Assembly: GCA_002070505.1 (NCBI GenBank) | Contig: MWDJ01000005.1 | Location: forward strand, 73,627 to 137,626 | Direction of reading: 5' to 3' | Origin: Bacteroidetes bacterium ADurb.Bin145 | GTDB lineage: Bacteria > Bacteroidota > Bacteroidia > Bacteroidales > VadinHA17 | DNA: 64,000 bases | Shown: piece by piece, positions 1,816-63,025 of the stretch | How positions within the stretch are numbered: position 1 is the stretch's first letter | How the letters are laid out: each line of letters begins with the position of its first letter | The notes under the pieces: generated by a model | The model's database searches: none | Told to the model about the DNA's origin: nothing | What the model saw: only the letters and a program-made list of their open reading frames with translations | Translations under genes and position numbers: made by a program

Positions 1816-1894
1816 TATTTTTTTTATTTTTAATTTTCATTCCAGCAGAAACAGATAAGGTGATTTTAAATATCTATAACTGAAATTTTTTATC

Positions 1895-2932: not shown

Positions 2933-2949
2933 TCAGATAGACAGTAAGA

Positions 2950-4323: not shown

Positions 4324-4383
4324 CTTAAAGAATATGCTTTTAGTAATATTAGAATATCCATAAATCCTTTGGCAAAGCCAGGA

Positions 4384-5695: not shown

Positions 5696-5915
5696 ATCAA
5701 GAAATTTAAATGTTTAATCAATAACGTTAAAGTATCAGTGTAAATTATATCTACAATAAACTTCGATATAATCCGTTTTATTGTCCGTAAAAATATATAA
5801 TTTAACGACAGATGGAAAATTTTTTCCGAAAACTATTTCGCATGATAAAAATACGATTTTACGCTCCTGAAATATCAATTAATAAAATAATTTTTATTAC
5901 TCTTGTCCCCATTGT

Positions 5916-5923
5916 TATCTTTG
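5916..5923 (+). promoter_or_regulatory. -7 promoter box TATCTTTG upstream of the DUF4270-like gene
   Basis: Matches TAnnTTTG, 32 nt upstream of the ATG at 5955. Confidence 0.35.
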
Positions 5924-5954
5924 CCGTTTATCAGTAAGACATTATATTTATAAG

Positions 5955-7283
5955 ATGAAAAGTAAGATTTGCAGGGGATATTTCACCTTACTGATTTTTT
6001 CAGCGCTCATAACTTCTTGTACGAGTGAGGATTTTGTAATTGGGAGGAAATTCCTTGACAGCAGCGTCAGAACGATAATGATCGATACATGCTCTGTTAA
6101 ATTGAGCACTGTCTCCATCGACTCGGTTAAAACCTCGAATAAAAACTCAGTTCTTGCTGGAAGATTTATAGATCCTATCGCCGGTACAACTGTTTGTACG
6201 GCTTTTATCCCTTTTGGTGTTCCCGTCCAGCCGCAACTCCCTGAACATAAATTGATCTTTGATTCACTTCAACTGGTTATGTGCCTGGGAGATAAATGGA
6301 TAGGAGATACAACACGTTTTAATTCTTTCAGGATTCACAAGCTGACTGAACCGGTTGAACCGCGTGAAGGAGGAGCGTTTTACAGCACTAACTCAATCCC
6401 GTTTGAAACTGAACCCCTTACAGAATTCTCTTTCAAGAAAGAATCATTACGGGGAGATTCTGTCTCTGTCCGTCTTCCTGACGACCTAGGATCAGATCTG
6501 TTCGAAAAAGTTAGAGTCTTTGATGAGTCGGTTATGGGTTCTCAGGAACGTTTTTCAAATTATCTGCCCGGTTTTGCCCTGACTGCCGGAGACGATAATA
6601 AAAATGTGCTTTCTTTTACTGTGAGTGAGGATTCGAGCATGCTGCTGAAAATCTACTATCACTATTCCACATGGGTTAAAACCCAGGGGATAATTACGAT
6701 CAAACCGCTTCCGACAAAATGTTTCTACGGAGTTGTAACTGATCGTAGCGGTACTCCTTTCAAAGATCTCGCAGCAGTCAAAGAACTTCCATCATCCAAA
6801 AGTGGAAATATGGTTCTGATCCAGGCGCTCACCGGCTCTTATCTGAAAATCGAAATTCCTCATCTGAACGATCTGCTTCAACTTGGTGATTTCAGCACTG
6901 TTACTGCCGGAGCATTGGTTATTTACCCTGTAAAAGGAACATTTTCAAAGCTCAATCCTCTGCCTACCAATCTCTCAATGTATGTCTCTGATGAAAACAA
7001 TGTTACACAGGGTTATATCACAAATTACTCCGGAGAGTCATTGCAGACAGGAAACCTGGTTACCGATGAACTTTTTGGCATTGATACATATTACACATAT
7101 GATATTACATCCTTCCTTCAGAGCCAGCTGGGAGCTTTCGGAATTTATAAAAGGAACCTTAAGCTTACTGTCCCTGAAGACATATTAGCAACCTCTCTCA
7201 ACACTCTTGTCGCCGGAGATATGTTACATCCGGGAAACAGGATAAAGTTGAAAATATCGTATCTTATCTATGACGGTAAATAG
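5955..7283 (+). CDS. DUF4270-like lipoprotein
   Basis: Lipoprotein signal (LLIFSALITSC). The N-terminal pattern IG..FLD......D...V...T...DSV.T......LAGRFIDPIAG matches my recollection of DUF4270. The 3' end overlaps the next gene by 14 nt. Confidence 0.55.
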   Translation: MKSKICRGYFTLLIFSALITSCTSEDFVIGRKFLDSSVRTIMIDTCSVKLSTVSIDSVKTSNKNSVLAGRFIDPIAGTTVCTAFIPFGVPVQPQLPEHKLIFDSLQLVMCLGDKWIGDTTRFNSFRIHKLTEPVEPREGGAFYSTNSIPFETEPLTEFSFKKESLRGDSVSVRLPDDLGSDLFEKVRVFDESVMGSQERFSNYLPGFALTAGDDNKNVLSFTVSEDSSMLLKIYYHYSTWVKTQGIITIKPLPTKCFYGVVTDRSGTPFKDLAAVKELPSSKSGNMVLIQALTGSYLKIEIPHLNDLLQLGDFSTVTAGALVIYPVKGTFSKLNPLPTNLSMYVSDENNVTQGYITNYSGESLQTGNLVTDELFGIDTYYTYDITSFLQSQLGAFGIYKRNLKLTVPEDILATSLNTLVAGDMLHPGNRIKLKISYLIYDGK

Positions 7284-8493
7284 AATTGTATCCAGCATAT
7301 TGTCTTTAATTATATGGTCATCAGTTTCTCTGGCTCAGGAACTTAACATATCGCCATATTCAATTTTCGGGATCGGAGATATTCATCTGAGTGAAACAGG
7401 TCGTACTACAGGCATGGCTTCAGCATTGACGGGCCTTTCAGGTGGACAGTTGCTTAATACAGCTAATCCTGCCGCGCTTGCAACTCTCGATACCAATACT
7501 TTTATTTTTGACATGACTGGTTCGGCAAAAGGATCTCTTTATAATTCAGGAGGCCTTACCCAGGGTTCCCTGGGCGCAAATTTCAACAGAATAAGTGCAG
7601 GTCTACATATTACATCAAGATGGTCCGGGGCTGTTACTATACAGCCATATTCGACTGTAAACTATAAGGTGAAAAGAGAGGATTTTATTGAAGGTTCACA
7701 AAACAAAATTTCTACATTTTATGAGGGTTCCGGCGGGGTTAACCGTATTTCATTGCTTAATTCCTTCAGGCTGACCAAAAGTTTGTCAATTGGCGCGGAT
7801 TTTATGATGCTTTTTGGAAACATTAACCGGGACGTAACCCAAAGCGAGGTAAAGATAAGAGAGAATTCGCTCGGGAATTCATTCTCTTTTACAGCGGGTA
7901 CTTTTTACTGGACAAAACTTTCGGAAAACCTCAATTTCTCAGCCGGGCTGACATATGGCTATGGTACTGATCTCAGGTTCAAAAATTCCCTTACTGTAAT
8001 CAGCAAGGAAGGAAGCATTATTTTCAATGAGGATATTGAGTCTTCGCGTATGAAGAGCCCGGCAAACTGGGGAGCCGGTGCGTCTTTACACACGAGGAGG
8101 TTTATAGTTGCTGCTGATTACCGTTATCAGAAATGGTCAATGTTATATGGCAGCAAGGCAGATCGAAGGTTTACTGATACACATATGGCTAATATTGGCG
8201 CGGAATATGCTCCGGGAGTTAATTCCGGAAGAACTTATGCCAGATCATTTAAATATGAAGCCGGTCTATCTGTATCCAATTCTTTCTTGACAATAAACGG
8301 AATTAACCCTATAAATTTTGAACTGACAGCCGGAGCAGCAATACCTTTGCGGACAGGGGGACAGGTAAATGCCAGTATTGGATGGGGAAAAAGAGGAACA
8401 ACGGACAAAGGCCTTATCAGGGAAGATTACCTTCGTCTTACACTCAGCATATCGCTAGCCGAGAGAATGTTCCTGAAACGAATGTACGATTAA
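7270..8493 (+). CDS. outer-membrane beta-barrel protein, FadL/TodX/PorV-like
   Basis: Signal peptide (SSVSLAQE). N-terminal hatch-like motif GRTTGMASALTGLSGGQLLNTANPAAL, which fits the GxG(A)...NPA pattern of FadL-type barrels. The remainder has an alternating beta-strand pattern. Confidence 0.55.
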   Translation: MTVNRIVSSILSLIIWSSVSLAQELNISPYSIFGIGDIHLSETGRTTGMASALTGLSGGQLLNTANPAALATLDTNTFIFDMTGSAKGSLYNSGGLTQGSLGANFNRISAGLHITSRWSGAVTIQPYSTVNYKVKREDFIEGSQNKISTFYEGSGGVNRISLLNSFRLTKSLSIGADFMMLFGNINRDVTQSEVKIRENSLGNSFSFTAGTFYWTKLSENLNFSAGLTYGYGTDLRFKNSLTVISKEGSIIFNEDIESSRMKSPANWGAGASLHTRRFIVAADYRYQKWSMLYGSKADRRFTDTHMANIGAEYAPGVNSGRTYARSFKYEAGLSVSNSFLTINGINPINFELTAGAAIPLRTGGQVNASIGWGKRGTTDKGLIREDYLRLTLSISLAERMFLKRMYD

Positions 8494-8545
8494 CCGCCTT
8501 TCAGCATTTATCGCTTACATAGGTAACACTCAAAATCAGAAGTTT

Positions 8546-9871
8546 TCAGTGATCGAGAACTGATCCGTCAAAACTATCCCACATCTCCGGGAATTCCCAC
8601 TCTTTGACACCCCGCTCATTTTCGATAAGATCATCGTCAAGCTCAATTCCCAGGCCTGGGCCATCAATATTGCCGGCCAGTGCAATATGCCCGTCATTTC
8701 CCATTACAAGAGGTTTTTTGATATAACTTTTGCCCAGTGCACTTCTCTTAACTCCGTCTTCAGGAGCTGCCTGAAGGCTTGGGAGCTCATGTGCCAGAAG
8801 GTTGGGAATGCTTGCGGCCACATGCATCGAAGCCACTGCACCTACTATCCCTTCCTTTGCATGGGGAAGCATGGATGCGTAGAATGCCTCAGCAAGTATG
8901 GCAATCGCTTTCATCTCGGTTATTCCGCCGCAATGAGTTACATCAGGCTGAAGAAGTGAGGCGGCACCAAGTGACAACAGATCCCTGAACTGCCATTTGG
9001 TGACCATCCTTTCCCCTGTGGCAAAAGGAATATGAGTCTTTTTGGCCATTTCTGCCATCAGGGGCAGATTCTGAAACTGTATTGGTTCCTCAAAGAACCA
9101 GGGTTGAAATGGTTCAAGCGCTTTAATCAGCAGCATGGATGTCTGAGGAGAATGATCTCCATGCAGTTCAATTCCCATATCCGTTTTTGGACCGATCACA
9201 TCCCTTATTGCAGATACATTTTCAACCATACCCTGAATAAAATCGGGATTTTCTACTATCCTTGACAATCTTCCGCGGCTGTAAGTAGCACTTACCTTCA
9301 TTGATTTGTATCCTTCATTTATCACCTGTTTAGCACCTTCAGGATCTCCGGCCTGTCCGTAAACTCTTATCCGGTCACGTGTAGGGCCGCCGAGAAGTTC
9401 ATATATGGGAACGCCCAGAGCTTTTCCTTTTATATCCCACATCGCTATATCAACTGCTGAGAGCGCACTTGTCAGAACTATATCTCCCCTGTAAAAGGCA
9501 TGGCGGTATATTGCCTGCCAGTGATGAGCAGGACGCCTCGGATCTTTACCGATAAGGTAATTCTCAAGTTCACCTATCGCTGCAGCTGTTGTTGAAATAC
9601 GTCCCTCAACCGTTCCCTCTCCGACACCTGTAATGCCTGCATCAGTATGTAATTTAATGAATATGGTTCTCAGTGTATTTACAGGAATTATCTCAAGTTT
9701 TGTGATTTTGATCGTTTCACGAGGAGCTATTAGAGCTTTTTGAGGATTCAATATGTTCTCTTTTCCCTCAGGCTGAAAATGCTTGCCCGTCAGCTGTTCA
9801 GCAGTTAAAAGACCTGCCATACCGGCTGTCATCTGCTTAAGCCAATTCCTTCTGGATTTATTATGTGCCAT
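8546..9871 (-). CDS. enolase-superfamily (mandelate racemase/muconate lactonising; galactonate/mannonate dehydratase-like) enzyme with twin-arginine signal
   Basis: Start moved from a TTG at 9904 to the ATG at 9871. The N-terminus MAHNKSRRNWLKQMTAGMAGLLTA is a Tat consensus (S-R-R-x-W-L-K). MR_MLE features: AVDIAMWDIKGK, GIELHGDHSP, FFEEP, ATGER. Confidence 0.8.
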   Translation of the reverse strand: MAHNKSRRNWLKQMTAGMAGLLTAEQLTGKHFQPEGKENILNPQKALIAPRETIKITKLEIIPVNTLRTIFIKLHTDAGITGVGEGTVEGRISTTAAAIGELENYLIGKDPRRPAHHWQAIYRHAFYRGDIVLTSALSAVDIAMWDIKGKALGVPIYELLGGPTRDRIRVYGQAGDPEGAKQVINEGYKSMKVSATYSRGRLSRIVENPDFIQGMVENVSAIRDVIGPKTDMGIELHGDHSPQTSMLLIKALEPFQPWFFEEPIQFQNLPLMAEMAKKTHIPFATGERMVTKWQFRDLLSLGAASLLQPDVTHCGGITEMKAIAILAEAFYASMLPHAKEGIVGAVASMHVAASIPNLLAHELPSLQAAPEDGVKRSALGKSYIKKPLVMGNDGHIALAGNIDGPGLGIELDDDLIENERGVKEWEFPEMWDSFDGSVLDH

Positions 9872-9979
9872 GTCATTTGAAATAAGTGTGGTATGAAGAT
9901 ACAAAAACTATTGGGATTAAGCTCTCACAGGATAATTCGGGATTACTCGCTACGCTCGTGATCCCTTGTGGGGAGGCTT

Positions 9980-10112
9980 CAAACTCATCAGATCAGTCTT
10001 CGCTTCGCGGTTTTTTGTTTTTTAAAAGCCCTCACTCAGACGGGGTCTGGTTCGGGCTTTTAAAAAACAAAAAACCCGCAGCTGACGCTGCGGGACTGAT
10101 CTGATGAGTTTG
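9980..10112. repeat. 133-nt nested inverted repeat (MITE/REP-like palindrome) abutting tRNA-Ser
   Basis: The outer arms are perfect 19-mers: 9980-9998 caaactcatcagatcagtc and 10094-10112 gactgatctgatgagtttg. The inner arms are perfect 23-mers: 10009-10031 ggttttttgttttttaaaagccc and 10054-10076 gggcttttaaaaaacaaaaaacc. The central loop is 22 nt. Confidence 0.8.
10062..10094 (-). terminator. rho-independent terminator of tRNA-Ser
   Basis: Read on the minus strand: CCCGCAGC-gtca-GCTGCGGG followed by TTTTTTGTTTTTT. It lies 17 nt downstream of the tRNA 3' end. Confidence 0.75.
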
Positions 10113-10202
10113 GCGGAGAAAGAGGGATTCGAACCCCCGGTCCACCGATAGGCGGACAACGGTTTTCAAGACCGCCGCATTCGACCACTCTGCCATTTCT
10201 CC
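10111..10202 (-). tRNA. tRNA-Ser (anticodon UGA), CCA encoded
   Basis: The reverse complement reads GGAGAAATGGCAGAGTGGTCGAATGCGGCGGTCTTGAAAACCGTTGTCCGCCTATCGGTGGACCGGGGGTTCGAATCCCTCTTTCTCCGCCA. The 7-bp acceptor stem is GGAGAAA/TTTCTCC. The anticodon loop CTTGAAA gives TGA. There is a long variable arm (GTCCGCC/GGTGGAC) and a T-loop TTCGAAT. Confidence 0.9.
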
Positions 10203-10214
10203 AATTATCCGCCG

Positions 10215-10222
10215 CAAATATA
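10215..10222 (-). promoter_or_regulatory. Bacteroidota-type -7 promoter box (TATATTTG) for tRNA-Ser
   Basis: The minus strand reads TATATTTG, matching TAnnTTTG, 13-20 nt upstream of the mature tRNA 5' end. Confidence 0.4.
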
Positions 10223-10445
10223 ATATTTTTTTTATTTGCTGTAGAAATTGTGAATTATTGATATATCATTGATAATCAGAGAAATAAATAATTTATTAAC
10301 ATGATTTGAACACAGACATCGGGCTGAAAATGCTCATTTAACCAATTAATGGGCTCCAGCGATTTCTCATTGCCTGAAAGGAGATATATGTAAAAACTCT
10401 TTTTTTTTTGCTAAAAGTCGCACTATTTGGTGAAAAACGCTAAAA

Positions 10446-10841: not shown

Positions 10842-10981
10842 CATCGTTTCAATAATGATCCCCTGATGATTTCAAATACATATTAAAAAAGCTGCAAAAA
10901 AATCGAAAAACAAATTTTAACATTAGGCTAAATTGTTTTTTTTACTATTTTTGATTTAGATTTTCAGGAGAAATATCAATT

Positions 10982-11689
10982 ATGAATTGTATAATCGTTG
11001 ATGACGATCAGATGAGTTGTAAAATACTCGAAGGATATGTAGCCAAATCTTCGTCTCTTAATCTGATAGGTACATTCAGCGATTCAGTTGAGGCAAGGAA
11101 TATTATAACAAAACGCAGGGACATTGACCTGGTTATTCTCGATATTCAGATGCCAGAGATGGATGGCTTCGATTTTATCAACAGCCTCGATTATCCTCCT
11201 AATATAATTATTGTTACTGCAACAGAAGGATATGCCCTGAAAGCATTCGATTTCAATGTAGTCGACTATCTGCTTAAACCGATAACCTATGGCAGGTTCT
11301 GCAAAGCCATCGACAAAACTATTCGGTACTATTCAAGGAAAGAGATATCTCCTACTGGCGACGAAGAAATCTTCATCAAAAAGGGACCCTCACTTGTTAA
11401 ACTCAAATTAAAGGATATTATCTATATCGAAGCTCTTGAGAATTACGTCACACTAACGACCAATGAAGACAGGTTCACAATTCACTTTACAATGAAAGCT
11501 ATTGAAAGCCAGCTTCCATCAGGTGTCTTCATCAGGGTTCACAGATCATTTATTATTAACAAGAGCATGATCCAGGCTATCAAAGAGAATTCTCTTGATC
11601 TGATTGTCGGGGATACAATAAAAAGCATTCCGGTCGGAAAATCTTTCAGAGAATCATTGCTTGATGATATAAATGTGATGGCCAGATAA
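10982..11689 (+). CDS. LytTR-family response regulator (REC + LytTR DNA-binding domain)
   Basis: REC motifs IIVDDD and DLVILDIQMPEMDGFDF. LytTR motif IIYIEALENYVTLTT...RVHRSFIIN. No cognate kinase gene is adjacent. Confidence 0.85.
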   Translation: MNCIIVDDDQMSCKILEGYVAKSSSLNLIGTFSDSVEARNIITKRRDIDLVILDIQMPEMDGFDFINSLDYPPNIIIVTATEGYALKAFDFNVVDYLLKPITYGRFCKAIDKTIRYYSRKEISPTGDEEIFIKKGPSLVKLKLKDIIYIEALENYVTLTTNEDRFTIHFTMKAIESQLPSGVFIRVHRSFIINKSMIQAIKENSLDLIVGDTIKSIPVGKSFRESLLDDINVMAR

Positions 11690-11703
11690 TTTCTCTTATC
11701 TGA

Positions 11704-12903
11704 ATGCTAACTAACCGCCAACTTTTTCTGCTTCACATGGGTCAGACCTCCTCTTCACCATTGCTGGTTGAAGTTGAGAAAGCTCAAGGTTCAATAATGT
11801 ACGGTCCTGATGGCAGAAAATATATCGACCTGATTTCCGGAGTTTCCGTAAGCAATACCGGCCACCGGCACCCGAAAGTAATCGAAGCAATAAGGAAACA
11901 GCTGGATTCTTATCTGCACCTGATGGTGTATGGTGAAATGATTCAATCGCCACAGGTAAGATTTGCAGAACATCTTTCAAGCCTCCTTCCCGATTGCCTG
12001 AATGTATGCTATTTTGTTAATTCCGGCAGCGAAGCTGTAGAGGGTGCTATGAAACTGGCCAGAAAATATACTCGTCGCAGCAGGATAATTTCCTTTAAAA
12101 ATGCATACCACGGAAGTACCTGTGGAGCACTAAGCATACAGGGTAGCGAGTTTTACAAAAATGCCTTTCGGCCTTTGCTTCCTGATACACTGCAAATCGG
12201 GTTCAATGATTTTGATTCTCTCGAAAGCATTGATGAACATACAGCATGCGTTATTGTGGAACCTGTCCAGGCAGAAGCCGGCGTAATTTACCCTGAATCC
12301 GGATTCCTTCAGGAAATACGAAATAGATGCAGCAATAAAGGAGCTCTTCTTGTTTTCGATGAAGTTCAGACAGGATTCGGCCGGATCGGAAAGATGTTCG
12401 CCATTGACAGGTTCGGAGTTGTGCCTGACATCCTTGTACTTGCCAAGGCAATCGGAGGCGGAATGCCGTTAGGAGCATTTATTTCATCAGGTGAAATTAT
12501 GGCGGTACTCAGTAATAATCCTCAGCTTGGACATATCACCACTTTCGGGGGCCATCCTGTATGCTGTGCCGCAGGTCTTGCTTCCCTTGAAGTAATAATA
12601 GAAGAAAATCTGTCTGAGGAATGTATCAGAAAATCCGGGCTCATAAAAAAGACCCTCGTTCACCCTCTCATTCATGAAGTAAGAGGTGAGGGCCTGCTTC
12701 TTGCTGTAGAAGTAAAAAAGCCTGAATATACTCAGTATATCGTTGCAAATGCACCCGGATTTGGTATTATACTTGATTATTTTCTCTTCTGTAATACTGC
12801 ATTCAGGATTGCACCTCCGTTAAATATTCCTGATGATATTCTAATTCAATCATGCAAACAGCTTTTAATGCTCCTGGATGATACTGAAAAAAATGTACGC
12901 TAG
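11704..12903 (+). CDS. class-III PLP aminotransferase (acetylornithine/succinylornithine aminotransferase-like)
   Basis: Motifs [33 protein letters not shown] and [14 protein letters not shown], which contains the PLP-binding Lys context. Confidence 0.75.
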
Positions 12904-12905
12904 AG

Positions 12906-13727
12906 ATGAATCGATTGATTTTCATTTGCTCCTTCACTTTATTCTCACTTTTCCAGGTGAAAGGTCAATCCGCGGTAAATGATATTCCCCTGACACTTCA
13001 GAAGCTTTATACAGCCATCCTAAATGCTGATGATGACGAACGGATCCGTCTTAACGATTCAGTAAAGCTCATAATGAATGATTATGTTATGTCTGATTCG
13101 GTATTCAGACACCGATTTGATAACCTCAGGTACCTTGGCCAGATAGATTCCCCTGACGGAAAACTCAAGCTCATCACCTGGAATCTCCCCCTTCGTAAAG
13201 GAGAAAACAGGTACTACCTTTATATAATAAGGAAGAACAAAAAACAGGAAAAAAACACTGTGTATAAACTCGAAGGTAAATACAGGCAGGAATCTGCCAG
13301 TACTGACAAAACTTATTCGGCTGATAACTGGTACGGCGCCTTGTACTATGCCATACAGCCTTTCAGATATAACGGAAATAAGCTTTACCTGATCCTGGGA
13401 CTGGATAGTGACAATGTTAATAATTCAAGGAAGATAATTGACATTCTTGACTTCAACGACAATGATGAGATCATTTTCGGACGGGATTGTCTCTTAAGAG
13501 ATGGTAAGAGGAAATACCGGGAGGTGCTTGAATATTCTGCCGATGGGATGATCTCACTTCGTCTAAGAACAAAGAAACTGATAGTTTTCGACCATATTAA
13601 TCCCTTAGCATTGGGGCATGAAAATGATCCGGAATCATTTGGTGCCGGATTATCATTTGACGGTTATTCATTCAGGAAGGGTAACTGGGAATTCAAATCC
13701 AATATAGATGTCAGGAATTTAAAATAA
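12906..13727 (+). CDS. hypothetical secreted protein
   Basis: 273-aa ORF with an N-terminal signal peptide (FICSFTLFSLFQVKGQ). It starts 3 nt after the previous stop. I recognised no family. Confidence 0.5.
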   Translation: MNRLIFICSFTLFSLFQVKGQSAVNDIPLTLQKLYTAILNADDDERIRLNDSVKLIMNDYVMSDSVFRHRFDNLRYLGQIDSPDGKLKLITWNLPLRKGENRYYLYIIRKNKKQEKNTVYKLEGKYRQESASTDKTYSADNWYGALYYAIQPFRYNGNKLYLILGLDSDNVNNSRKIIDILDFNDNDEIIFGRDCLLRDGKRKYREVLEYSADGMISLRLRTKKLIVFDHINPLALGHENDPESFGAGLSFDGYSFRKGNWEFKSNIDVRNLK

Positions 13728-55167: not shown

Positions 55168-55773
55168 TTATAAGAAAACTCTTGTCTCCGGTCCTGTATT
55201 GAACAGGATATCAATAATGCTGAGCTTCCGGGAACCTGGAATGTCCGCGTTGAACACCTGTTGATATTTTTTTGGGATGTAAGGAGAGGCTTTTTTAGGA
55301 TTGATACAATACCGGAGATCATTTGATTTACCTTCAACAGGCTGAAATCTATTAGTAAAAGTAACTCTTTTGTCCATCCTTATCATTCCGAGTATTGCCA
55401 TTAGCAGCTCCTGATTGAGGTCAAGGATATAAATGTGGTTTTTAAGGATGATTTTTTGAAGTGTTTCAAAATAGTAAAGAAAAAATGGTGATGAGCCGTA
55501 TGATGACATTATAGCTCCGAGATGGACCTGCTGCCATCTTTTTGAATAATCTATCCTGATATCCCTGATGGGAGTTTTATGGAGACTCCCGAGTAATACA
55601 GGCACACTAAGCATTTGAATACCGTTGGAAGACAGTATATAGCACCTGTTGCGGTAAGATTGTTTGAGGTAGTTCTCTTCGTTTTCAATAAGAACTTCAT
55701 CATATTCTGCTATTGCCGCGAAGTATTCGGAGGGAGGAAGATATGCAGTAGAAAGGTAAACTGTCGCAGGCAT
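55168..55773 (-). CDS. WbqC-family protein
   Basis: Motifs YLPPSEYFAAI and KQSYRNRCYILSSNGIQMLSVPV match my recollection of the WbqC-like family. It lies 12 nt downstream of larB. Confidence 0.65.
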   Translation of the reverse strand: MPATVYLSTAYLPPSEYFAAIAEYDEVLIENEENYLKQSYRNRCYILSSNGIQMLSVPVLLGSLHKTPIRDIRIDYSKRWQQVHLGAIMSSYGSSPFFLYYFETLQKIILKNHIYILDLNQELLMAILGMIRMDKRVTFTNRFQPVEGKSNDLRYCINPKKASPYIPKKYQQVFNADIPGSRKLSIIDILFNTGPETRVFL

Positions 55774-55785
55774 AAATTATTAGGA

Positions 55786-56535
55786 TTATTTCATCCTGTT
55801 GATCATGCTTGCTGAGAAACCTGCGCCGAAGCCATTATCGATATTAACAACAGTGACTCCTGCAGAGCAGCTTGTCAGCATAGCCAGCAGAGCCGAGATA
55901 CCTCCGAAATTGGCGCCATAGCCAACGCTCGTCGGCACAGCAATGACAGGCTTATCAACCAGACCGCTTACAACACTGGCAAGGGCTCCTTCCATACCTG
56001 CAATCACTACCACTACCTTGCTTTTTCTTATCTCCGGGAGCTTATCAACAAGCCTGTGAATCCCGGCTACACCTGCATCATAGATCCTTGTAACTTTATT
56101 CCCGAGGAGCTCTGCAGTTACTGCAGCTTCTTCCGCAACCGGAATATCTGAAGTTCCTGCTGTTATGACCGCAATTGTGCTTCCAGGGATAGTTGTTTTC
56201 TTCTTTTTTATAGAGATGATCCTTGCTTCTTTGTAGTAAACTGCTTCAGGGAATATTGATTTTATCTCATTAAACATATTCTCACTGGCCCTTGTGCCAA
56301 TTATATTATTTTCTTTCTTTATCATTACCCTGAATATTTCACGAACCTGTTCGGTCGTCTTGCCTGCGCAGTAAACTATTTCAGGATAACCGGTTCTCAT
56401 TTCACGGTGATGATCAATCCTGGCAAAGCCAAGGTCGGTATACGGAAAAGTTCTGAGCACTTCAAGTGCTTCAGCAACACTTTTACTGCCGTCCCTGACT
56501 TCTTTCAACAGTTTTTCAGTTTCTTTTTCTGTCAT
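55786..56535 (-). CDS. larB: nickel-pincer cofactor biosynthesis protein LarB (pyridinium-3,5-biscarboxylic acid mononucleotide synthase; PurE/AIR-carboxylase-like)
   Basis: 249 aa. Motifs ARIDHHREMRTGYPEIVYCAGKT, VITAGTSDIPVAEEA, AGMEGALASVV and VPTSVGYG. Confidence 0.8.
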   Translation of the reverse strand: MTEKETEKLLKEVRDGSKSVAEALEVLRTFPYTDLGFARIDHHREMRTGYPEIVYCAGKTTEQVREIFRVMIKKENNIIGTRASENMFNEIKSIFPEAVYYKEARIISIKKKKTTIPGSTIAVITAGTSDIPVAEEAAVTAELLGNKVTRIYDAGVAGIHRLVDKLPEIRKSKVVVVIAGMEGALASVVSGLVDKPVIAVPTSVGYGANFGGISALLAMLTSCSAGVTVVNIDNGFGAGFSASMINRMK

Positions 56536-56536
56536 T

Positions 56537-57334
56537 TTATTTCAATTCAGTATTCATACTACCTGTTCTGTAACCCTCAAGGTCCAAAGATATATATCTG
56601 AACCCGATTTTTTTTAAGCCCTCAATGATACTGTTTTTCTGCGGATCACATATGATCTTTTCAGAATAACCTGGGAGTAGCTCAATTCTGGCAATATCTG
56701 AATGTGCCCTGACCCGGGCTCCCGGATATCCCTTTTCCAAAAGCAAATCTTCTGCTTCTTCAACCATTTTTATTATGCCAGGGGTAATTTCCGTATCATA
56801 AGGGATTCTTGTCAGCAGACAGGCCATAGCCGGTTTATCCCATATTTTCAGACCTGCATTCAGGCAGAGCTCCCTTATTTCTTTCTTTGTCAATCCGGCT
56901 TCTGCAAGCGGGCTCCTTACTTCCATTTCTTTTAAAGCCCTCAGACCCGGCCTGTATTCGCGGGTATCATCAGAATTAGTACCGTCAATTATGTGTTTAA
57001 ATCCATTTTCTCTTGCAAATTCTACAAGATGACTGAATAGCAGTTTTTTGCAAAGATAACATCTGTTCTGCGGGTTGTGTCTTATCGCTTCCGGGAAGCT
57101 GATATCTATGATCTTGTGGTTGATACCATGAGCAGCTGCGAATTCAATCGCTTCGTTGATCTCACGTGCCGGCATATAGGGAGTCCGGATTGTTACAGCT
57201 ATGAACCTGATATTATTCAGCCTGCTTGTATGATAGACAAGGTAAGAGCTGTCAAGGCCACCGGAGAACGCAACCACAAAAGGACTCAAACCTGTCAGTA
57301 GGGTGTCAAGCCTGTCAGTCTTTTTCTGATCCAT
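56537..57334 (-). CDS. larE: LarE sulfur transferase (PP-loop ATP pyrophosphatase) of nickel-pincer cofactor synthesis
   Basis: PP-loop motif VVAFSGGLDSSY. Cys triad CYLC plus ACLLTRIPY. 265 aa. The stop lies 1 nt before the larB start. Confidence 0.8.
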   Translation of the reverse strand: MDQKKTDRLDTLLTGLSPFVVAFSGGLDSSYLVYHTSRLNNIRFIAVTIRTPYMPAREINEAIEFAAAHGINHKIIDISFPEAIRHNPQNRCYLCKKLLFSHLVEFARENGFKHIIDGTNSDDTREYRPGLRALKEMEVRSPLAEAGLTKKEIRELCLNAGLKIWDKPAMACLLTRIPYDTEITPGIIKMVEEAEDLLLEKGYPGARVRAHSDIARIELLPGYSEKIICDPQKNSIIEGLKKIGFRYISLDLEGYRTGSMNTELK

Positions 57335-57380: not shown

Positions 57381-58550
57381 CTACTTTCCGTTTATTGAAG
57401 CCATGATCCTGAAATAGACCTCCTTCACAGGAAGGCCCTTCTCAAGTGCTATCTTTCTGCATTCCTCATATTCAGGTTTGCACGATACTTCCTTGTCTTT
57501 ATAAAAAGAACGTTTAACAGTAATATTTCCGTATGGCGACTGAACAACTTCGAATTTCCTTACAAGAGTATCCTTCCTGAAGGAATAGGTTCTGACTCCC
57601 ACGGTTGTGGATTCATTGAAGATGATCTCCTTTATTTTATCTTCGTGACCGCGTTCACAAATGACATTCAGAACATTTCCCGGTCTGCCTTTCTTCATTA
57701 ATATATTTGTAATAAAAACATCAGAAGCTCCTGCTTTAAATAATTCATCTGAGATATGTTCGAAAAATTCCGGATTCATATCGTCGATATTGCACTGGAT
57801 CATCAGGGCATCGTGTCCTCCCTGCGGTTCTTCTGATTCAGCCAGAAAAACCCTCAGAAGGTTAGGAACGTCAGGATGTTCCTTCTGACCGACTCCGTAT
57901 GCAGTCTTTTCAATCCTGATAGCGGACGGCATTTTTGGCATTGTCACCAGGGTTGCAAGTATGGCTGCACCTGTAGGAGTGGTAGCTTCAAAATCAACAC
58001 CACCTTTTCTGACCGGTAAGCCCTTGATTATTTCAACAGTGGCAGGAGCAGGAACAGGCAGCTTTCCGTGTGCGCACTTGACAAATCCACTTCCAAGTTC
58101 AACTGTCGAAACCGTGACAGCTTCAACATTCAGTTTATTAAAGCATATAGCGGCACCAACGATATCAATTATTGAATCCACGGCTCCCACTTCATGAAAA
58201 TGGATCTCATCGGGGCTGACACCGTGGACCTCTGCTTCTGCTTCAGCAACAACTCTGAATATTTTCCGGCTCAGTGCTTTGGTCTTGAGGTCGAGCGCAG
58301 ATTCATTTATTATTTTCTCAATATCAGACAGATGCCTGTGAATATGTTCATGGCGGGTCTGTTTTACAGTGACTTTAGTGCCGGTTATCCCGTGCCGCTG
58401 GGCTTTCTCAACAACAAGTTCCCATCCTTTGAGATTCAGCTTATTCAATTCATCAACAAGATAGGTCTGGTCAATACCCAGATCAATCATTGCTCCGAGA
58501 TTCATATCCCCGCTGATCCCGCTAAAACAGTCGTAAAAAAGTAATTTCAT
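57381..58550 (-). CDS. larC: LarC nickel insertion protein (DUF111, CTP-dependent cyclometallase)
   Basis: The N-terminus LLFYDCFSGISGDMNLGAMIDLG is the DUF111/LarC signature. 389 aa. First gene of the larC-larE-larB cluster. Confidence 0.8.
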   Translation of the reverse strand: MKLLFYDCFSGISGDMNLGAMIDLGIDQTYLVDELNKLNLKGWELVVEKAQRHGITGTKVTVKQTRHEHIHRHLSDIEKIINESALDLKTKALSRKIFRVVAEAEAEVHGVSPDEIHFHEVGAVDSIIDIVGAAICFNKLNVEAVTVSTVELGSGFVKCAHGKLPVPAPATVEIIKGLPVRKGGVDFEATTPTGAAILATLVTMPKMPSAIRIEKTAYGVGQKEHPDVPNLLRVFLAESEEPQGGHDALMIQCNIDDMNPEFFEHISDELFKAGASDVFITNILMKKGRPGNVLNVICERGHEDKIKEIIFNESTTVGVRTYSFRKDTLVRKFEVVQSPYGNITVKRSFYKDKEVSCKPEYEECRKIALEKGLPVKEVYFRIMASINGK

Positions 58551-58790
58551 TAGTCAAAATAGTTTTACTGTTAGACAAACAGAAATGGTTATTGTTGTGA
58601 AACATCCCAAAATTCTCAGGATGCTAATATACAATTTCCATATGATCTGTCAGATTCTTCGCTGGTACAAAAATTAATTCAGGTCAGGCCGTTAAGAGTA
58701 TTTAAGATTTATAATTACGGAATAAAGAAAAAAAATTGTACTTTTCGGCATTCTCGATAATTATCCTGTAATAAACTAATAGAGTTCACT

Positions 58791-59711
58791 ATGAAGAGAC
58801 GGGATTTCCTTAAAACATCGGCTGGGGCCGGACTTATGGCCGGCGCAGCCTTCAGACTCGGCAGGTATGATAATCTGATGACAAGCCGTGCCGGGAATGC
58901 CAAGTATGATATGGTTGCTATCAAGGGTGGCTCTCCGGAAGCTATGTTCGATCTAGGGATACAGGAGCTGGGAGGAATGAAAACATTTGTGAGTAAAGGT
59001 CAGAAAGTCCTTGTCAAACCGAATATCGGATGGGACGTTGTACCTGAATTCGGAGCATGCACAAATCCCCTGCTAGTTGCACGGGTTATAGAGCACGTCC
59101 TGAGAGCCGGAGCCAAAGAAGTTTATGTATTTGATAATTCGGTAGACTACGGACCAAGCTGCTACAAGACTTCCGGTATCGAGAGAGCTGCTAAAAATGC
59201 AGGTGCCAAAGTTGTCCCTGCTCATTCTGAACGCTATTATCAGCAGGTTGAAATCCCTGGCGCTGTAGTGCTTAAGAAAGTCAAGGTGCATGAGGTCCTC
59301 CTTAATACCGACGTTTTCATTAATCTACCCATCCTGAAAGATCATGATACCACAAGAATGACAGCATGCCTTAAAAACATGATGGGCGTGATCTGGGACC
59401 GAAAATGGTGGCATTCAAATAATCTTGACCAGTGTATTGCTGATTATGGGTTGTTTGAAAAGAAACCTTCTCTGCATATACTTGATTGCTATAATGTTAT
59501 GTTTAGAAACGGCCCAAGAGGAATATCAAAACAGGATGTCGTCCAGATGAAATCCCAGATAATTACAACCGACTGGGTGGCAGGAGACACAGCAGCCACA
59601 AGATTACTTGGCATAGAAACATCAAGGATTGCACATGTTCCTCTTGCAAGCAAACTCGGACTCGGGACGATGAATATTGACGCTCTCAATATTAAAAGGA
59701 TTCAAATGTGA
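58791..59711 (+). CDS. DUF362-family protein with twin-arginine (Tat) signal peptide
   Basis: The N-terminus MKRRDFLKTSAGAGLMAGAAF is a Tat consensus. DUF362-type blocks: KVLVKPNIGW, CTNPLLVARVIEHV...GAKEVYVFDN and INLPILKDHDTTRMTACLKNMMGV. There is no Cys-cluster motif. Confidence 0.7.
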   Translation: MKRRDFLKTSAGAGLMAGAAFRLGRYDNLMTSRAGNAKYDMVAIKGGSPEAMFDLGIQELGGMKTFVSKGQKVLVKPNIGWDVVPEFGACTNPLLVARVIEHVLRAGAKEVYVFDNSVDYGPSCYKTSGIERAAKNAGAKVVPAHSERYYQQVEIPGAVVLKKVKVHEVLLNTDVFINLPILKDHDTTRMTACLKNMMGVIWDRKWWHSNNLDQCIADYGLFEKKPSLHILDCYNVMFRNGPRGISKQDVVQMKSQIITTDWVAGDTAATRLLGIETSRIAHVPLASKLGLGTMNIDALNIKRIQM

Positions 59712-59715
59712 TTTG

Positions 59716-61275
59716 ATGAAAACGCCCTTTCTTCGGAAATTCAGAATACTTTTTTCGGCAGTTGTTTTTATCTGTTTCTTTCTTGTATTTGTTGATCTAA
59801 AGAACCTGATACCGGTTAATTATATTAATATACTTCTGTCGTTGCAGTTCATTCCTTCCTTATTGAAGTTTTTTGATCTCAGAACATTCATAACGGCAGG
59901 TTTCATAGCTGTTTTAATTCTGACATTGCTGACGGGAAGGACATATTGCTCATTTTTATGTCCTCTTGGAATAGGCCAGGATTTTTTCAGCAGGATAGGA
60001 GGCCGGATAAGAAAAAAATTCAGGAGATACGGTTATAAAAAACCATTTACTGTAATCAGGTATACGTTACTTGGTATTACAGCCGTAATCACCCTTATTT
60101 GGGGCGTTTATATGCTGACGCTTCTCGATCCTTACAGCATATTCGGAAGGTTCATGACATATTTCGTAAAACCTGTTGTTATTGTTATTAATAACTTTGC
60201 TGAAGGGATACTTGCAAAATTTGATATCTATTCCCTTATTCATGTACCTGTACTGGGTTTCAAGCCGTTTGTCTATATAGTACCTGCTGTATTTGCACTT
60301 CTGATTGGAGGATTATCCCTTACCAAAGGAAGACTTTATTGCAATATGATTTGTCCTGTAGGCACTCTCCTCGGGCTCTTTTCAAAACTCTCCCTGTTCA
60401 GGATCAGGATCGACGAGAGCACTTGTACAAGGTGCGGCAGATGCTCGATAGGATGCAAATCCTCATGCATTGATTTTCTTAGATATGATATTGATGTCAC
60501 ACGTTGTGTCGATTGTTTTAATTGTATAAAAATCTGTCCCGACAAAGCTATCTCATATAGTCTTGTCAGGTTAAAAAAGAAAACTCCTGAAACAGATCCC
60601 GGCAGGCGCAGGTTTGTAGCAGGATCGCTTCTGCTGCTACTTGGTATCCCCACAGTACTGCGGGGCCAGGAAAAGAAGGTTCCTAAAGCAACAAAGCAAT
60701 CAACTGTTAAAGAGGATAAGACTTGTCCGGTTTGTCCCCCGGGAGGTATATCTATTGAAGATTTTCAGCAGGATTGTACAGCTTGCTCCCTTTGTATATC
60801 AAATTGTCCGACAGGTGTTTTGCAGCCGGCCTGGCTTGAATATGGGGTTTCCGGGATCATGCAGCCAGTCATGGATTATCACCGGGGGTTCTGCAATTAC
60901 AATTGCACTAAATGCACCGAGATTTGCCCGACCAATGCGCTCCATCCTTTAGTGCTTGAAGCAAAAAAGCTTACACAGCTGGGGCAGGTCCATTTCATTA
61001 AGGATAACTGCATAGTAAAAAATGAAAAAACCGCCTGCGGTGCCTGTTCCGAATCATGTCCGACAAAAGCGGTATATATGGTTCCTTATGAAGGCGACCT
61101 TGTAATTCCTGAAACAAATCCTGAGATTTGCATCGGATGCGGTCAGTGTGAATATTCCTGTCCCACAACTCCTTACAAAGCAATATTTGTGAACGGAAAT
61201 CCTGTTCATCAGGTAGCTAAAAAACCTGAGAGCACCGAAGCTGAAATAGCTATTCCTGACGAGTTCCCGTTCTGA
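59716..61275 (+). CDS. membrane polyferredoxin, NapH-like N-terminal module fused to a NapG-like 4-cluster module via an internal RRR+TM segment
   Basis: Start set at the ATG at 59716, 4 nt after the DUF362 stop. Membrane motifs YCSFLCPLG and YCNMICPVG (CX3CP). Cys motifs: CTRCGRCSIGC, CVDCFNCIKICP, then GRRRFVAGSLLLLLGIP, then CTACSLCISNCP, CNYNCTKCTEICP, C..CGACSESCP and CIGCGQCEYSCP. Confidence 0.7.
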   Translation: MKTPFLRKFRILFSAVVFICFFLVFVDLKNLIPVNYINILLSLQFIPSLLKFFDLRTFITAGFIAVLILTLLTGRTYCSFLCPLGIGQDFFSRIGGRIRKKFRRYGYKKPFTVIRYTLLGITAVITLIWGVYMLTLLDPYSIFGRFMTYFVKPVVIVINNFAEGILAKFDIYSLIHVPVLGFKPFVYIVPAVFALLIGGLSLTKGRLYCNMICPVGTLLGLFSKLSLFRIRIDESTCTRCGRCSIGCKSSCIDFLRYDIDVTRCVDCFNCIKICPDKAISYSLVRLKKKTPETDPGRRRFVAGSLLLLLGIPTVLRGQEKKVPKATKQSTVKEDKTCPVCPPGGISIEDFQQDCTACSLCISNCPTGVLQPAWLEYGVSGIMQPVMDYHRGFCNYNCTKCTEICPTNALHPLVLEAKKLTQLGQVHFIKDNCIVKNEKTACGACSESCPTKAVYMVPYEGDLVIPETNPEICIGCGQCEYSCPTTPYKAIFVNGNPVHQVAKKPESTEAEIAIPDEFPF

Positions 61276-61381: not shown

Positions 61382-61801
61382 ATGAGTCCGTCACATATTG
61401 AACATATCGGTATTGCCGTAAAAGATCTGAAATCAGCCGTCAGATTGTACGAAAACCTTCTGGGACGTGAATGCTATAAAATTGAAGAAGTGCCTGGTCA
61501 GAAAGTACGGACTGCCTTCTTCAGAATAGGTGAGGTGAAGATTGAACTTCTTGAATCAACTGACCCTGAAGGACCCATTGGTAAATTCATCGAAAAAAGA
61601 GGTGAAGGAGTACATCATATTGCTTTTGCAGTAAATGATATCGGGAAGCAGCTGGAAATTGCAAGAGACAATAATATAGGACTTATAAACGAGATCCCGC
61701 AGGAAGGAGCGGATGGTCTTGATATAGCTTTTATTCATCCTAAATCAACCTCCGGTGTTCTGATAGAACTCTGTGAAGATAAAAGGAGCGGACCTGAATA
61801 A
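61382..61801 (+). CDS. mce: methylmalonyl-CoA epimerase (VOC/glyoxalase-fold)
   Basis: 139 aa. Motifs IEHIGIAVKDL, VKIELLE, GEGVHHIAFAV and GVLIELCE. Confidence 0.75.
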   Translation: MSPSHIEHIGIAVKDLKSAVRLYENLLGRECYKIEEVPGQKVRTAFFRIGEVKIELLESTDPEGPIGKFIEKRGEGVHHIAFAVNDIGKQLEIARDNNIGLINEIPQEGADGLDIAFIHPKSTSGVLIELCEDKRSGPE

Positions 61802-61813
61802 ATCATAAATGAT

Positions 61814-63025
61814 ATGAACAGGCAGATTGCTGTAAGTGGTAACTCAGGGCCAAAGGTCAGATCAGATTGTGAAATAACAATTGAATTAAAAAACAAAGGT
61901 GGCCTGACTATCGATCTTGAGTCAAGAGTCAAAGTTCTTTATGGAAACTCAATCACTGAACTTTGCAGACAGACCCTGCATTTTTTCGGGATAAAAAATG
62001 CTTATGTTAAGATCTCTGATTCGGGAGCTTTACCGTTTGTGATAACTGCACGTGTTGAAGCTGCTTTAAAGAAACTTATTGATACTAACAGCGAATACCT
62101 TCCTGAAATTACCAATCAGGGAGGCTATTCTTTCTCAAGAGACAGGTTCAGGTTTTCGCGACTCTACGTACCTGGTAATACTCCCAGTCTGATGATAAAT
62201 GCAGGCCTCTATGGAGCTGACGGGATCATCCTTGATCTCGAGGATTCAGTTGCTCCTGATAAAAAGGATGAAGCCAGGATTCTTGTCAGGAACGCGCTTC
62301 GTCAGCTTGATTTCCGGGATGCAGAAAGAATGGTAAGGATAAACCAGTCAGAAAAAGGACTCGAAGATCTGTGGTACGTCGTGCCGCATAATGTGAACCT
62401 GATACTGATACCGAAATGCGAATCGGAAGATGATATACATTTAGTAGAAAATGAGATCAATAAAATCAGGAAAAAGCACAGGATTAATAAAGTCATCTTA
62501 CTGATGCCAATTATAGAGAGCGTATCGGGGATCGAAAATGTGTCGTCTATTGCCAGGGCATCAGAGAATATTGTTGCATTAGCTATCGGACTGGAAGATT
62601 ATACGGCAAGCATTGGTGTGTCAAGGACTTTTGAAGGCAGGGAATCATTCTATGCAAGATCAAGGCTGGTTGTGGCGGCAAAAGCAGCTGGTATTCAGCC
62701 TATTGACTCCGTTTTTTCAGATATTGATGATCTGGAAGGTCTTAAAAGAAGCATTATTGAATCCAGATCACTGGGCTTTGAAGGGATGGGATGCATCCAT
62801 CCCAGGCAGATACCGGTCATCAGTGAGGGTTTTGCTCCAAAGGAAGATGAGATAGAAAAAGCAGTTAAGATCATTCAGGCTTTTGAAGAGGCAAAGAGCA
62901 GGGGACTGGGTGTTGTGGCACTTGGCTCTAAAATGATTGATGCTCCTGTTGTGGCAAGAGCTCAGAAAACGATTGACCTGGCTGTCAGGCTGGGTAAACT
63001 TTCCCGTAACAGGGCTGAAGATTGA
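61814..63025 (+). CDS. citrate lyase gamma (acyl carrier, CitD)-beta (citryl-CoA lyase, CitE) fusion protein
   Basis: The N-terminal ~95 aa resemble CitD (AVSGNSGPKVRSDCEITIEL; DSGALPFVITARVEAAL, compare E. coli DKGALDCILRARLEA). The remainder is HpcH/CitE-like (SRLYVPGNTPSLM, GADGIILDLEDSVAP, IESVSGIEN, LAIGLEDY). Confidence 0.7.
   Translation: MNRQIAVSGNSGPKVRSDCEITIELKNKGGLTIDLESRVKVLYGNSITELCRQTLHFFGIKNAYVKISDSGALPFVITARVEAALKKLIDTNSEYLPEITNQGGYSFSRDRFRFSRLYVPGNTPSLMINAGLYGADGIILDLEDSVAPDKKDEARILVRNALRQLDFRDAERMVRINQSEKGLEDLWYVVPHNVNLILIPKCESEDDIHLVENEINKIRKKHRINKVILLMPIIESVSGIENVSSIARASENIVALAIGLEDYTASIGVSRTFEGRESFYARSRLVVAAKAAGIQPIDSVFSDIDDLEGLKRSIIESRSLGFEGMGCIHPRQIPVISEGFAPKEDEIEKAVKIIQAFEEAKSRGLGVVALGSKMIDAPVVARAQKTIDLAVRLGKLSRNRAED

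Follow-up and report, generated by a model that had tools for sequence, protein, structure and literature searches.

A 64,000-nucleotide stretch of the Bacteroidetes bacterium ADurb.Bin145 genome (contig MWDJ01000005.1, positions 73,627 to 137,626 of the forward strand; hereafter, the window) carries two adjacent genes, one for a DUF362 protein and one for a polyferredoxin, that form a functional unit in which DUF362 is the obligate partner of the polyferredoxin. Judged from sequence, the pair probably makes up a periplasmic redox module of the NapGH type whose candidate catalytic subunit is novel, and we consider it likely that a DUF362 catalytic subunit exported by way of twin-arginine translocation (Tat) works with a polyferredoxin integrated by Sec and Tat. 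The DUF362 protein adopts the LarA fold in its structure model, carries a co-varying His/Lys/His triad and lies beside the genes for biosynthesis of nickel-pincer nucleotide (NPN), LarA's cofactor. So far as the searchable literature shows, neither the obligate partnership nor the predicted fold, the triad or the lar neighbourhood has been reported.

Organization of the gene pair

The DUF362 gene (306 aa) ends in a TGA stop at 59709-59711 and is followed, after a 4-nt spacer, by the ATG of a 519-aa polyferredoxin at 59716; the open reading frame (ORF) list and the sequence bear out the coordinates and the two-gene arrangement given in a preliminary description of this DNA. The features of the pair, with the evidence for each, are as follows (TM, transmembrane; AF2, AlphaFold2).

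58791-59711, + strand: DUF362 protein, candidate periplasmic catalytic subunit with predicted Tat export and a LarA-like fold (Pfam, AF2, Foldseek)
58791-58856, + strand: predicted twin-arginine signal peptide MKRRDFLKTSAGAGLMAGAAFR (TIGR01409, RRxF conservation)
59343-59414, + strand: candidate cofactor site (H185 at 59343-59345, K195 at 59373-59375, H208 at 59412-59414)
59716-61275, + strand: NapH-NapG fusion polyferredoxin with predicted Sec plus Tat integration (domains, motifs, BLASTP; family described in PMC5449189)
59716-60585, + strand: NapH-like half with four TM helices, two CX3CP motifs and two predicted cytoplasmic [4Fe-4S] motifs (two Fer4_5 domains, BLASTP, hydropathy, charge)
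59947-59964 and 60340-60357, + strand: codons of the CX3CP motifs in the NapH-like half
60604-60663, + strand: internal Tat motif R297-R298-R299-F300 and weak TM5, then RGQEKK (NapG alignment, ortholog conservation)
60703-61272, + strand: NapG-like, predicted periplasmic domain with four [4Fe-4S] motifs, the C354, C393, C432 and C472 series (BLASTP against NapG)

A NapH-NapG fusion with predicted Sec and Tat dependence

In the polyferredoxin, Pfam recognized a number of 4Fe-4S dicluster domains besides two of the NapH type (Fer4_5), and hydropathy analysis placed four strongly hydrophobic segments ahead of a weaker fifth at about residues 300-316. Two CX3CP motifs (C78-P83 and C209-P214) and two CX2CX2CX3C motifs (at C237 and C264) were located; the four N-terminal TM helices, two CX3CP motifs, two ferredoxin motifs and further TM helix of the preliminary description were thus all found. 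That description had also listed four more Cx2Cx2Cx3CP-type motifs: four are present, but only those at C354 and C472 have the canonical CX2CX2CX3CP spacing, the motif at C393 being CX3CX2CX3CP and that at C432 CX8CX2CX3CP. Because all 28 Fe-S and CX3CP cysteines are 100% conserved in 88 full-length orthologs, including 16 of 16 in the NapG-like domain, the set of motifs lies far beyond chance. Clusters of K/R at the N-terminus (four) and in the TM2-TM3 loop (nine) indicate an N-in topology.

The proposal that the gene is a NapH-NapG fusion was confirmed by direct BLASTP comparison, in which residues 40-280 aligned with residues 69-276 of Escherichia coli K-12 NapH (E=6e-8) and residues 289-482 with residues 3-196 of NapG (E=3e-10). 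The NCBIfam NapH, NapG and MauMN models also matched, with scores below their equivalog cutoffs (NapH PRK09477, 69.3 bits against a cutoff of 234; NapG PRK09476, 46 bits against 269); since the scores fall so far under the cutoffs, the protein is orthologous neither to NapH nor to NapG. No nap genes were present among the neighbours in the window or in 10 Pfam-annotated distant loci.

Directly before TM5 lies an internal twin-arginine motif, G296-RRR-F300 (nt 60604-60615), which the preliminary description had passed over together with the adjacent larC-larE-larB genes; the segment RGQEKK follows TM5. The Tat signal peptide of NapG, GRRRFLRDVVRTAGGLAAV, aligns onto the internal polyferredoxin segment GRRRFVAGSLLLLLGIPTV, and TM5 is therefore read as a retained NapG Tat signal. 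All 88 orthologs have R at position 298 and either K or R at position 297; strict RR was counted in 29 and KRK in 56, most close relatives having KR, and the classical RR motif occurs both in the window protein and in distant lineages. Using Kyte-Doolittle (KD) hydropathy as a proxy for the apparent insertion free energy, delta-G(app), of Tooke et al., we obtained a value of 1.60 for TM5 of the window protein compared with 2.63 for TM1, and TM5 was less hydrophobic than TM1 in 87 of the 88 orthologs, with a mean of 3.2 K/R within the 12 residues that follow it.

These properties can be set beside the study of Tooke et al. (eLife 2017, PMC5449189), in which all prokaryotic proteins were screened for internal Tat motifs preceded by TM helices of even number. 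The family that emerged, described as 'polytopic polyferredoxin' (PFD) and exemplified by Q1NSB0 of the delta-proteobacterium MLMS-1, has five TM helices, is integrated by Sec plus Tat and was interpreted as a fusion of NapH and NapG in which three clusters are cytoplasmic and four extracytoplasmic. Reporters fused after TM5 of the MLMS-1 protein were exported in a Tat- and RR-dependent manner, and the hand-over from Sec to Tat depended on the weak hydrophobicity of TM5 and on the positive charges behind it (PMC5449189). The low hydrophobicity of TM5 and the K/R residues after it in our protein correspond to the hand-over signature demonstrated in that family, of which the window polyferredoxin is, on its sequence features, a member. 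It shares with the MLMS-1 protein the five TM helices, the NapH-like N-terminal half, the twin arginine before a weak TM5 with trailing positive charges, the NapG-like four-cluster extracytoplasmic domain and the 28 cysteines, enough for seven clusters. The window protein differs in coming from Bacteroidota, a phylum outside the taxa listed in the PFD study, and in that most of its close relatives have KR; moreover, that study dealt with biogenesis only and named neither partner nor function (PMC5449189), whereas a conserved DUF362 partner is found here.

An alternative would be that the fifth hydrophobic segment either fails to cross the membrane or does not depend on Tat, in which case the Fe-S portion would be entirely cytoplasmic and the exported DUF362 protein would not be its direct redox partner. 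We regard this as very improbable. It draws on the KR that replaces RR in 60 of the 88 orthologs and that precedes TM5 in most close ones, a point that speaks against Tat integration, on the marginal hydrophobicity of TM5 and on the TM predictions that Tooke et al. called ambiguous for the PFD family (PMC5449189). The basic pair is nonetheless invariant as [K/R]-R, and natural KR Tat signals are known. TM5 aligns, furthermore, with a bona fide NapG Tat signal peptide, the MLMS-1 homolog moves reporters Tat- and RR-dependently (PMC5449189), and the partner DUF362 protein has a Tat signal of its own in all lineages. The periplasmic location that the preliminary description had predicted for the C-terminal domain is accordingly better supported than before, by the internal Tat motif aligned with the NapG signal, the weak TM5 and the trailing K/R residues.

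Conservation of the pair in near and distant lineages

The preliminary description had suggested surveying how often the two genes stay together, and the pair proved to be kept in near and distant lineages alike. A scan of species-representative genomes gave 298 relatives, of which 80 were kept, all uncultured Bacteroidales (63-93% identity); the DUF362 and polyferredoxin genes were adjacent in all 77 of these loci with enough sequence. Because synteny within one clade proves little, the distant loci matter most. Adjacency was found in 10 of 10 loci at 35-57% identity (Ignavibacteriaceae, Ca. Fervidibacter/Armatimonadota and others), in the single locus of Parabacteroides distasonis (WP_005857469.1 and WP_121956785.1) and in 13 of 14 metagenomic loci at 33-39% identity, the metagenome scan having been made with a single protein, P0190, as the query. 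All remaining neighbours differ at the distant loci, and the Tat signal is kept by all distant DUF362 orthologs. This strict conservation across unrelated gene neighbourhoods supports the earlier placing of DUF362 as the periplasmic partner.

The sole metagenomic exception, L111, is rearranged (10930-13017), with a nucleotidyltransferase/PIN toxin-antitoxin insertion after the DUF362 gene and then a truncated DUF362 copy of 164 aa; we take the locus to be disrupted because the polyferredoxin is absent there. Two distant loci vary the theme: L088 has two tandem Tat-DUF362 paralogs (6852-7910 and 8001-8918) ahead of one polyferredoxin, 25% and 35% identical to the window protein and both keeping K183, H185, K195 and H208, and in L086 a gene for a DAO-family FAD oxidoreductase (9179-10285) stands between the two.

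The setting of the pair bears on a further explanation, in which it would be no catabolic or respiratory enzyme but an electron-supply or maintenance system akin to NosR/NosGH, MauMN or CcoG, the polyferredoxin feeding low-potential electrons and DUF362 reducing or activating a periplasmic metal, cofactor or protein. In most loci the pair lies among housekeeping genes, not in catabolic operons; the polyferredoxin fits the subfamily model NapH/MauN in its N-terminal half and MauM/NapG in its C-terminal half; and the NapH-like proteins NosR, PceC and CcoG act in activation or metal reduction. A candidate client enzyme is, however, not conserved beside the pair in any lineage, and the LarA-like architecture of the active site (below) suggests hydride chemistry on a small molecule, which leaves a maintenance role unlikely in our estimation.

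Further observations were made at the distant loci. A DUF6599 (PF20244) protein is encoded beside the pair in two unrelated loci (L087, 10848-11705; L111, 8336-9340) and may, in some lineages, be an accessory component. In the three Ignavibacteria-like loci L081, L082 and L084, a protein of about 170 aa without a Pfam match is encoded divergently just upstream of the DUF362 gene (7339-7851, 7339-7854 and 7302-7808, respectively; all on the - strand), in the position held by larC in the window. The P. distasonis locus (L091, NZ_OY725750.1) is on a 168-kb 'plasmid 5' that was typed as non-mobilizable. With tgt, lptF/G, trkA/G, xylA/xylE and further core genes on it, this molecule resembles a piece of chromosome more than a plasmid.

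A LarA fold for the DUF362 protein

Pfam PF04015 matched the DUF362 protein with E=6e-45 and 154.2 bits (gathering threshold, 24), residues 73-270 covering 199 of the 200 profile positions. Its Tat signal, already noted in the preliminary description, scores above the cutoff of TIGR01409 (18.9 bits; cutoff, 16.7) and just below that of Pfam TAT_signal (21.5; cutoff, 22.7), and the motif is conserved among relatives: in 126 full-length diverse representatives at 33-52% identity, R3 and R4 are retained in 95% and 85%, respectively, and RRxF is found in 107 of the 126 as well as in 12 of 12 distant orthologs. The window protein is matched by 5004 clusters at 50% identity, and DUF362 is described by Pfam as often fused to ferredoxin domains. 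A match to NCBIfam NF052623, the 'Npun_F2552 family', so called from a Nostoc punctiforme protein, was also recorded at 68 bits, under its cutoff. As most cyanobacteria have larBCE but no LarA (PMC11796402), this family, related to DUF362, is a candidate for an NPN user in cyanobacteria.

Searches of PDB sequences with phmmer and profile hmmsearch returned chance matches only and did not reach the LarA chains. We then relied on an AF2 model built from a diverse 80-sequence alignment (predicted local distance difference test score (pLDDT) 88.6 overall and ~96 for the mature domain; predicted template-modelling score (pTM) 0.85); a first model from a shallow alignment was replaced, its confidence being low exactly in the active-site loops. 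When the model was compared with the PDB using Foldseek, the top 19 matches all belonged to the LarA superfamily (E 7.6e-6 to 1.4e-3; template-modelling score on the query (TMq), 0.43-0.53; 220-290 columns), among them 4NAR, 9Q3J, 2YJG, 9Q3K, 8EZF, 9EIA, 5HUQ, 7S91 and 6D6Z, after which the list falls to generic methyltransferase/Rossmann folds, the next match having a probability of 0.77. The ranking of the LarA family was unchanged with the earlier, poorer model (top 18-19 across the two models). By the model, then, the DUF362 protein has a LarA fold. DUF362 and the DUF2088 domain of LarA share Pfam clan CL0471, and the Desguin laboratory rooted the LarA tree with DUF362 as the outgroup (PMC11770544). 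The preliminary description had DUF362 as a family with no assigned function, which still holds for function, but structurally it is not anonymous.

A candidate His/Lys/His site

In the 126 representatives, positions K76-P77-N78, K183, H185, K195, N196, G199, H208, D232, G241-P242 and D266 are at least 92% conserved. H185, K195 and H208, each conserved in 92-94%, co-vary: 116 sequences have all three, 6 have none and 4 are partial. The three residues are lost together, which points to one functional site.

A LarA profile of 13 sequences, with sequence and numbering verified against 5HUQ, has D72, R75, H108, H174, K184, H200, Q295 and K298 invariant. In the best hhalign alignment, which is collinear over 250 columns (DUF362 38-300 on LarA 27-332) and not significant (E=0.14 to 0.34), H185 falls on H174 (the catalytic His), K195 on K184 (the NPN tether) and H208 on H200 (a Ni ligand), and an unfiltered hmmsearch placed H185 and K195 in the same register. 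The alignments support the candidate mapping of H185, K195 and H208 to LarA without proving it. A comparison with a three-sequence LarA profile (DUF362 20-108 on LarA 258-350; probability 1.4%) was set aside as uninformative, the LarA profile being too thin. NPN enzymes and LarA homologs with a single catalytic His exist (PMC12611868), and a single base would fit a unidirectional dehydrogenase rather than a racemase.

The lar genes and the question of the cofactor

Immediately upstream of the DUF362 gene and divergent from it lies a complete larC-larE-larB set, all three genes above their equivalog cutoffs: larC with LarC1 at 214.9 bits (cutoff, 90) and LarC2 at 141.8 bits (cutoff, 50), larE with TIGR00268 at 294 bits (cutoff, 150) and larB with NF033503 at 303.6 bits (cutoff, 175).

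57381-58550, - strand: larC, nickel-pincer cofactor cyclometallase, divergent from the DUF362 gene (LarC1/LarC2, NCBIfam)
56537-57334, - strand: larE, sulfur insertase for NPN biosynthesis (TIGR00268)
55786-56535, - strand: larB, carboxylase/hydrolase of nicotinic acid adenine dinucleotide (NaAD) for NPN biosynthesis (NF033503)
58551-58790, unstranded: larC/DUF362 divergent intergenic region of 240 bp, presumed shared regulatory region (gene layout only)

LarC and LarB genes hold this position in 65 of 67 related loci, and a LarA homolog was found neither in the window nor in 84 loci totalling 1.55 Mb. The combination of larBCE without larA occurs in ~15% of genomes (PMC11796402), and NPN users not yet identified must therefore exist; a non-LarA, NPN-dependent aldo-keto-reductase family was lately found by the same adjacency logic (PMC13524815). 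In the literature searched, DUF362 is tied to NPN only by a clan statement, and no paper ties NPN to the periplasm, Tat, Fe-S chains or quinones. On this evidence NPN is a plausible cofactor of DUF362, with the balance tilted somewhat against it.

Several observations weigh against NPN. Adjacency to lar is confined to one Bacteroidales clade, in which unrelated genes are equally syntenic (methylmalonyl-CoA epimerase (MCE) in 71/74 and WbqC in 67/67), and it thus counts as one evolutionary event; the idea that the adjacency is widespread was rejected because of this confinement to one clade. At the 33 loci of other lineages the 8-12 kb around the pair contain no lar genes, and two close relatives, L003 and L005, keep the pair without adjacent lar genes. 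LarA homologs themselves are often unlinked to larBCE. A Pfam scan of the protein at E<=10 gave DUF362 alone, with no Lar_N/DUF2088 match; the LarA profile-profile alignment is insignificant (E=0.14, probability <1%), and another register came first in hhalign when alignment A4 was the query. The region of LarA H108, the second catalytic His, aligns near Y125, with no histidine in DUF362; the D72 (ribose) region aligns to K76-P77-N78, N78 lying within one position in an alignment that is insignificant, and D72 has no clear equivalent; R75 (phosphate) meets a non-conserved residue; and most of the C-terminal domain of LarA is missing from DUF362.

The same observations feed a reading in which the two-subunit, quinone-linked periplasmic module is retained and DUF362 works without NPN, using another cofactor or a mono- or binuclear metal at the conserved His/Lys/His/Asp, for example with a carbamylated lysine, the lar genes being inherited synteny; the invariant N78, K183, D232 and D266, which have no assigned LarA counterpart, favour this reading. 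We hold this to be a genuine contender, though less likely than not, for three reasons: a LarA-fold protein beside a complete larCEB set with no LarA is unlikely by chance (about two neighbour positions among thousands of genes), the three LarA cofactor residues are all in register and co-varying, and Tat export, where no other cofactor motif is recognizable, requires that the cofactor be acquired in the cytoplasm.

Some features of the lar genes were noted alongside. The window LarE has a CxxC pair (NRCYLCKK) and a third Cys (PAMACLL) and resembles the [4Fe-4S]-dependent catalytic Thermotoga type rather than the sacrificial single-Cys type (PMC9283937). In seven related loci larE is missing between larC and larB. 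At the distant locus L090 (2686-8464) the polyferredoxin gene has behind it a class-V aminotransferase/cysteine-desulfurase-like gene, then NadA (quinolinate synthase) and then a gene for a 197-aa CTP_transf_like (NadD-like) protein; NadA and the NadD-like protein represent steps toward NaAD, the NPN precursor, and give a weak hint only.

Proposed mechanism and comparison with known systems

We propose the following scheme for the module. Sec would insert TM1-4 of the polyferredoxin, whose NapH-type quinone-reactive core would lie in the TM1-4 half with at most three [4Fe-4S] clusters facing the cytoplasm; coupling to quinone or quinol is suggested by homology. The cytoplasmic and C-terminal Fe-S domains would fold and gain their clusters, after which Sec would release TM5 and Tat would recognize it and move the pre-folded four-cluster domain to the periplasm. 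DUF362 would be loaded with its cofactor in the cytoplasm, the best guess being NPN from the adjacent LarB/LarE/LarC, and such loading would explain its need for Tat; it would then be exported by its own Tat signal and dock on the NapG-like domain as the catalytic subunit. At the candidate His-x9-Lys-x13-His site a small substrate, for instance a sugar acid or a 2-hydroxy acid, would lose or gain a hydride, and the two electrons would travel singly along seven Fe-S clusters, either toward menaquinone or away from it. The module could run in either direction, as a hydroxy-acid:menaquinone oxidoreductase or as a menaquinol-driven reductase. The dependence on Tat, the physical interaction, the coupling to quinone, the binding of NPN, the substrate and the direction are thus all proposals of the scheme; taken as a whole, a quinone-linked periplasmic oxidoreductase with DUF362 as catalytic subunit and a cofactor, possibly NPN, that is probably loaded in the cytoplasm stands close to evenly balanced, leaning slightly to doubt.

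Comparison with NapGH of E. coli and Wolinella succinogenes shows shared homology to both subunits, the same motif set and the same predicted topology, and a shared logic, predicted for the window, of electron transfer from quinol through an Fe-S chain to a Tat-exported periplasmic catalytic subunit. NapGH consists of two subunits, whereas the window protein is one fused polypeptide scoring far under the NapH/NapG equivalog cutoffs; the partners NapA, NapB and NapC are absent at the window locus, and the partner is DUF362 rather than a molybdoenzyme or a cytochrome. A general parallel is offered by MsrPQ (YedYZ) and the fused Sco3746-type relatives, which likewise combine a membrane electron-input subunit with a Tat-exported periplasmic catalytic subunit and occur either as distinct polypeptides or in Sec/Tat-fused form (PMC5449189); their cofactors are heme b and molybdopterin, and they are not related to the window pair.

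With LarA (5HUQ, 9EIA and 9Q3J), DUF362 shares the predicted fold (its only significant PDB matches), the Pfam clan, the aligned His/Lys/His, in an alignment that is itself not significant, and the adjacent larBCE. The mature DUF362 protein has ~270 aa, compared with ~424 aa for LarA, and carries a Tat signal. Its constant pairing with an Fe-S electron-transfer protein implies net redox turnover, unlike the internal hydride shuttle of LarA. NphT, an NPN-dependent hydride transferase of aldo-keto-reductase fold (Nat Chem 2026, PMC13524815), is likewise a non-LarA protein encoded adjacent to larBCE without larA and has a conserved Lys and His; it is a cytoplasmic TIM barrel that lacks an Fe-S partner, and experiments have shown that it binds NPN, whereas NPN binding by DUF362 is proposed.

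On a tentative reading, to which we give less credence than doubt, NPN enzymes would have a second major branch in DUF362, the first to lie in the periplasm and be hard-wired to an Fe-S chain. The hydride bound by NPN might then be split into two single electrons that run through seven [4Fe-4S] clusters with the quinone pool at the far end, a conjecture we advance with reserve. NPN could in that event act as a respiratory, flavin-like two-electron/one-electron converter, again a speculative step, in contrast to LarA, which returns the hydride to the same substrate.

What the analysis adds can be stated for each field. A published, function-less family of NapH-NapG fusions gains a conserved, predicted periplasmic partner, and what was a targeting curiosity becomes a candidate enzyme complex; the very large DUF362 domain, to which no function is assigned, gains a testable structural hypothesis of a LarA fold with a His/Lys/His site; and the NPN field gains a candidate answer to the question of which proteins use the cofactor in the ~15% of genomes with larBCE and no larA. 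Were NPN to be confirmed, the reach of its chemistry would widen beyond internal hydride shuttling to net respiratory electron transfer and beyond the cytoplasm to the periplasm, and if the redox-coupled reading of NPN is true, much of the puzzle of larBCE without larA would be accounted for. The presence of the pair in Parabacteroides distasonis, a cultivable human-gut commensal, makes genetics and biochemistry feasible.

Neighbouring genes in the window

The neighbours of the pair in the window are the lar genes and MCE. A sigma-70 promoter and terminator scan of the larC-DUF362 region gave background level, the sigma-70 model being ill-suited to Bacteroidota, and an Rfam scan found no riboswitch or other RNA near the pair. 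A WbqC-like gene (PF08889) at 55168-55773 (- strand) follows directly after larB in 67 of 67 related loci, and it still adjoins the DUF362 gene in the two loci that lack the lar genes, L003 and L005. Downstream of the polyferredoxin, the MCE gene (61382-61801, + strand), syntenic in 71 of 74 close relatives and absent from the distant loci, is followed by a single gene (61814-63025, + strand) in which CitD, the citrate-lyase acyl-carrier domain, is fused to a CitE-like beta subunit.

At the other end of the window (94-9904) a set for sugar-acid catabolism comprises a beta-galactosidase C-terminal region, a KDG/KDGal kinase (2-keto-3-deoxy-gluconate/-galactonate), a mutarotase-like protein and an enzyme of the galactonate-dehydratase family, the ORF of the last beginning ~65 residues ahead of the start of the family model. 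A tRNA gene lies at 10114-10202 (- strand).

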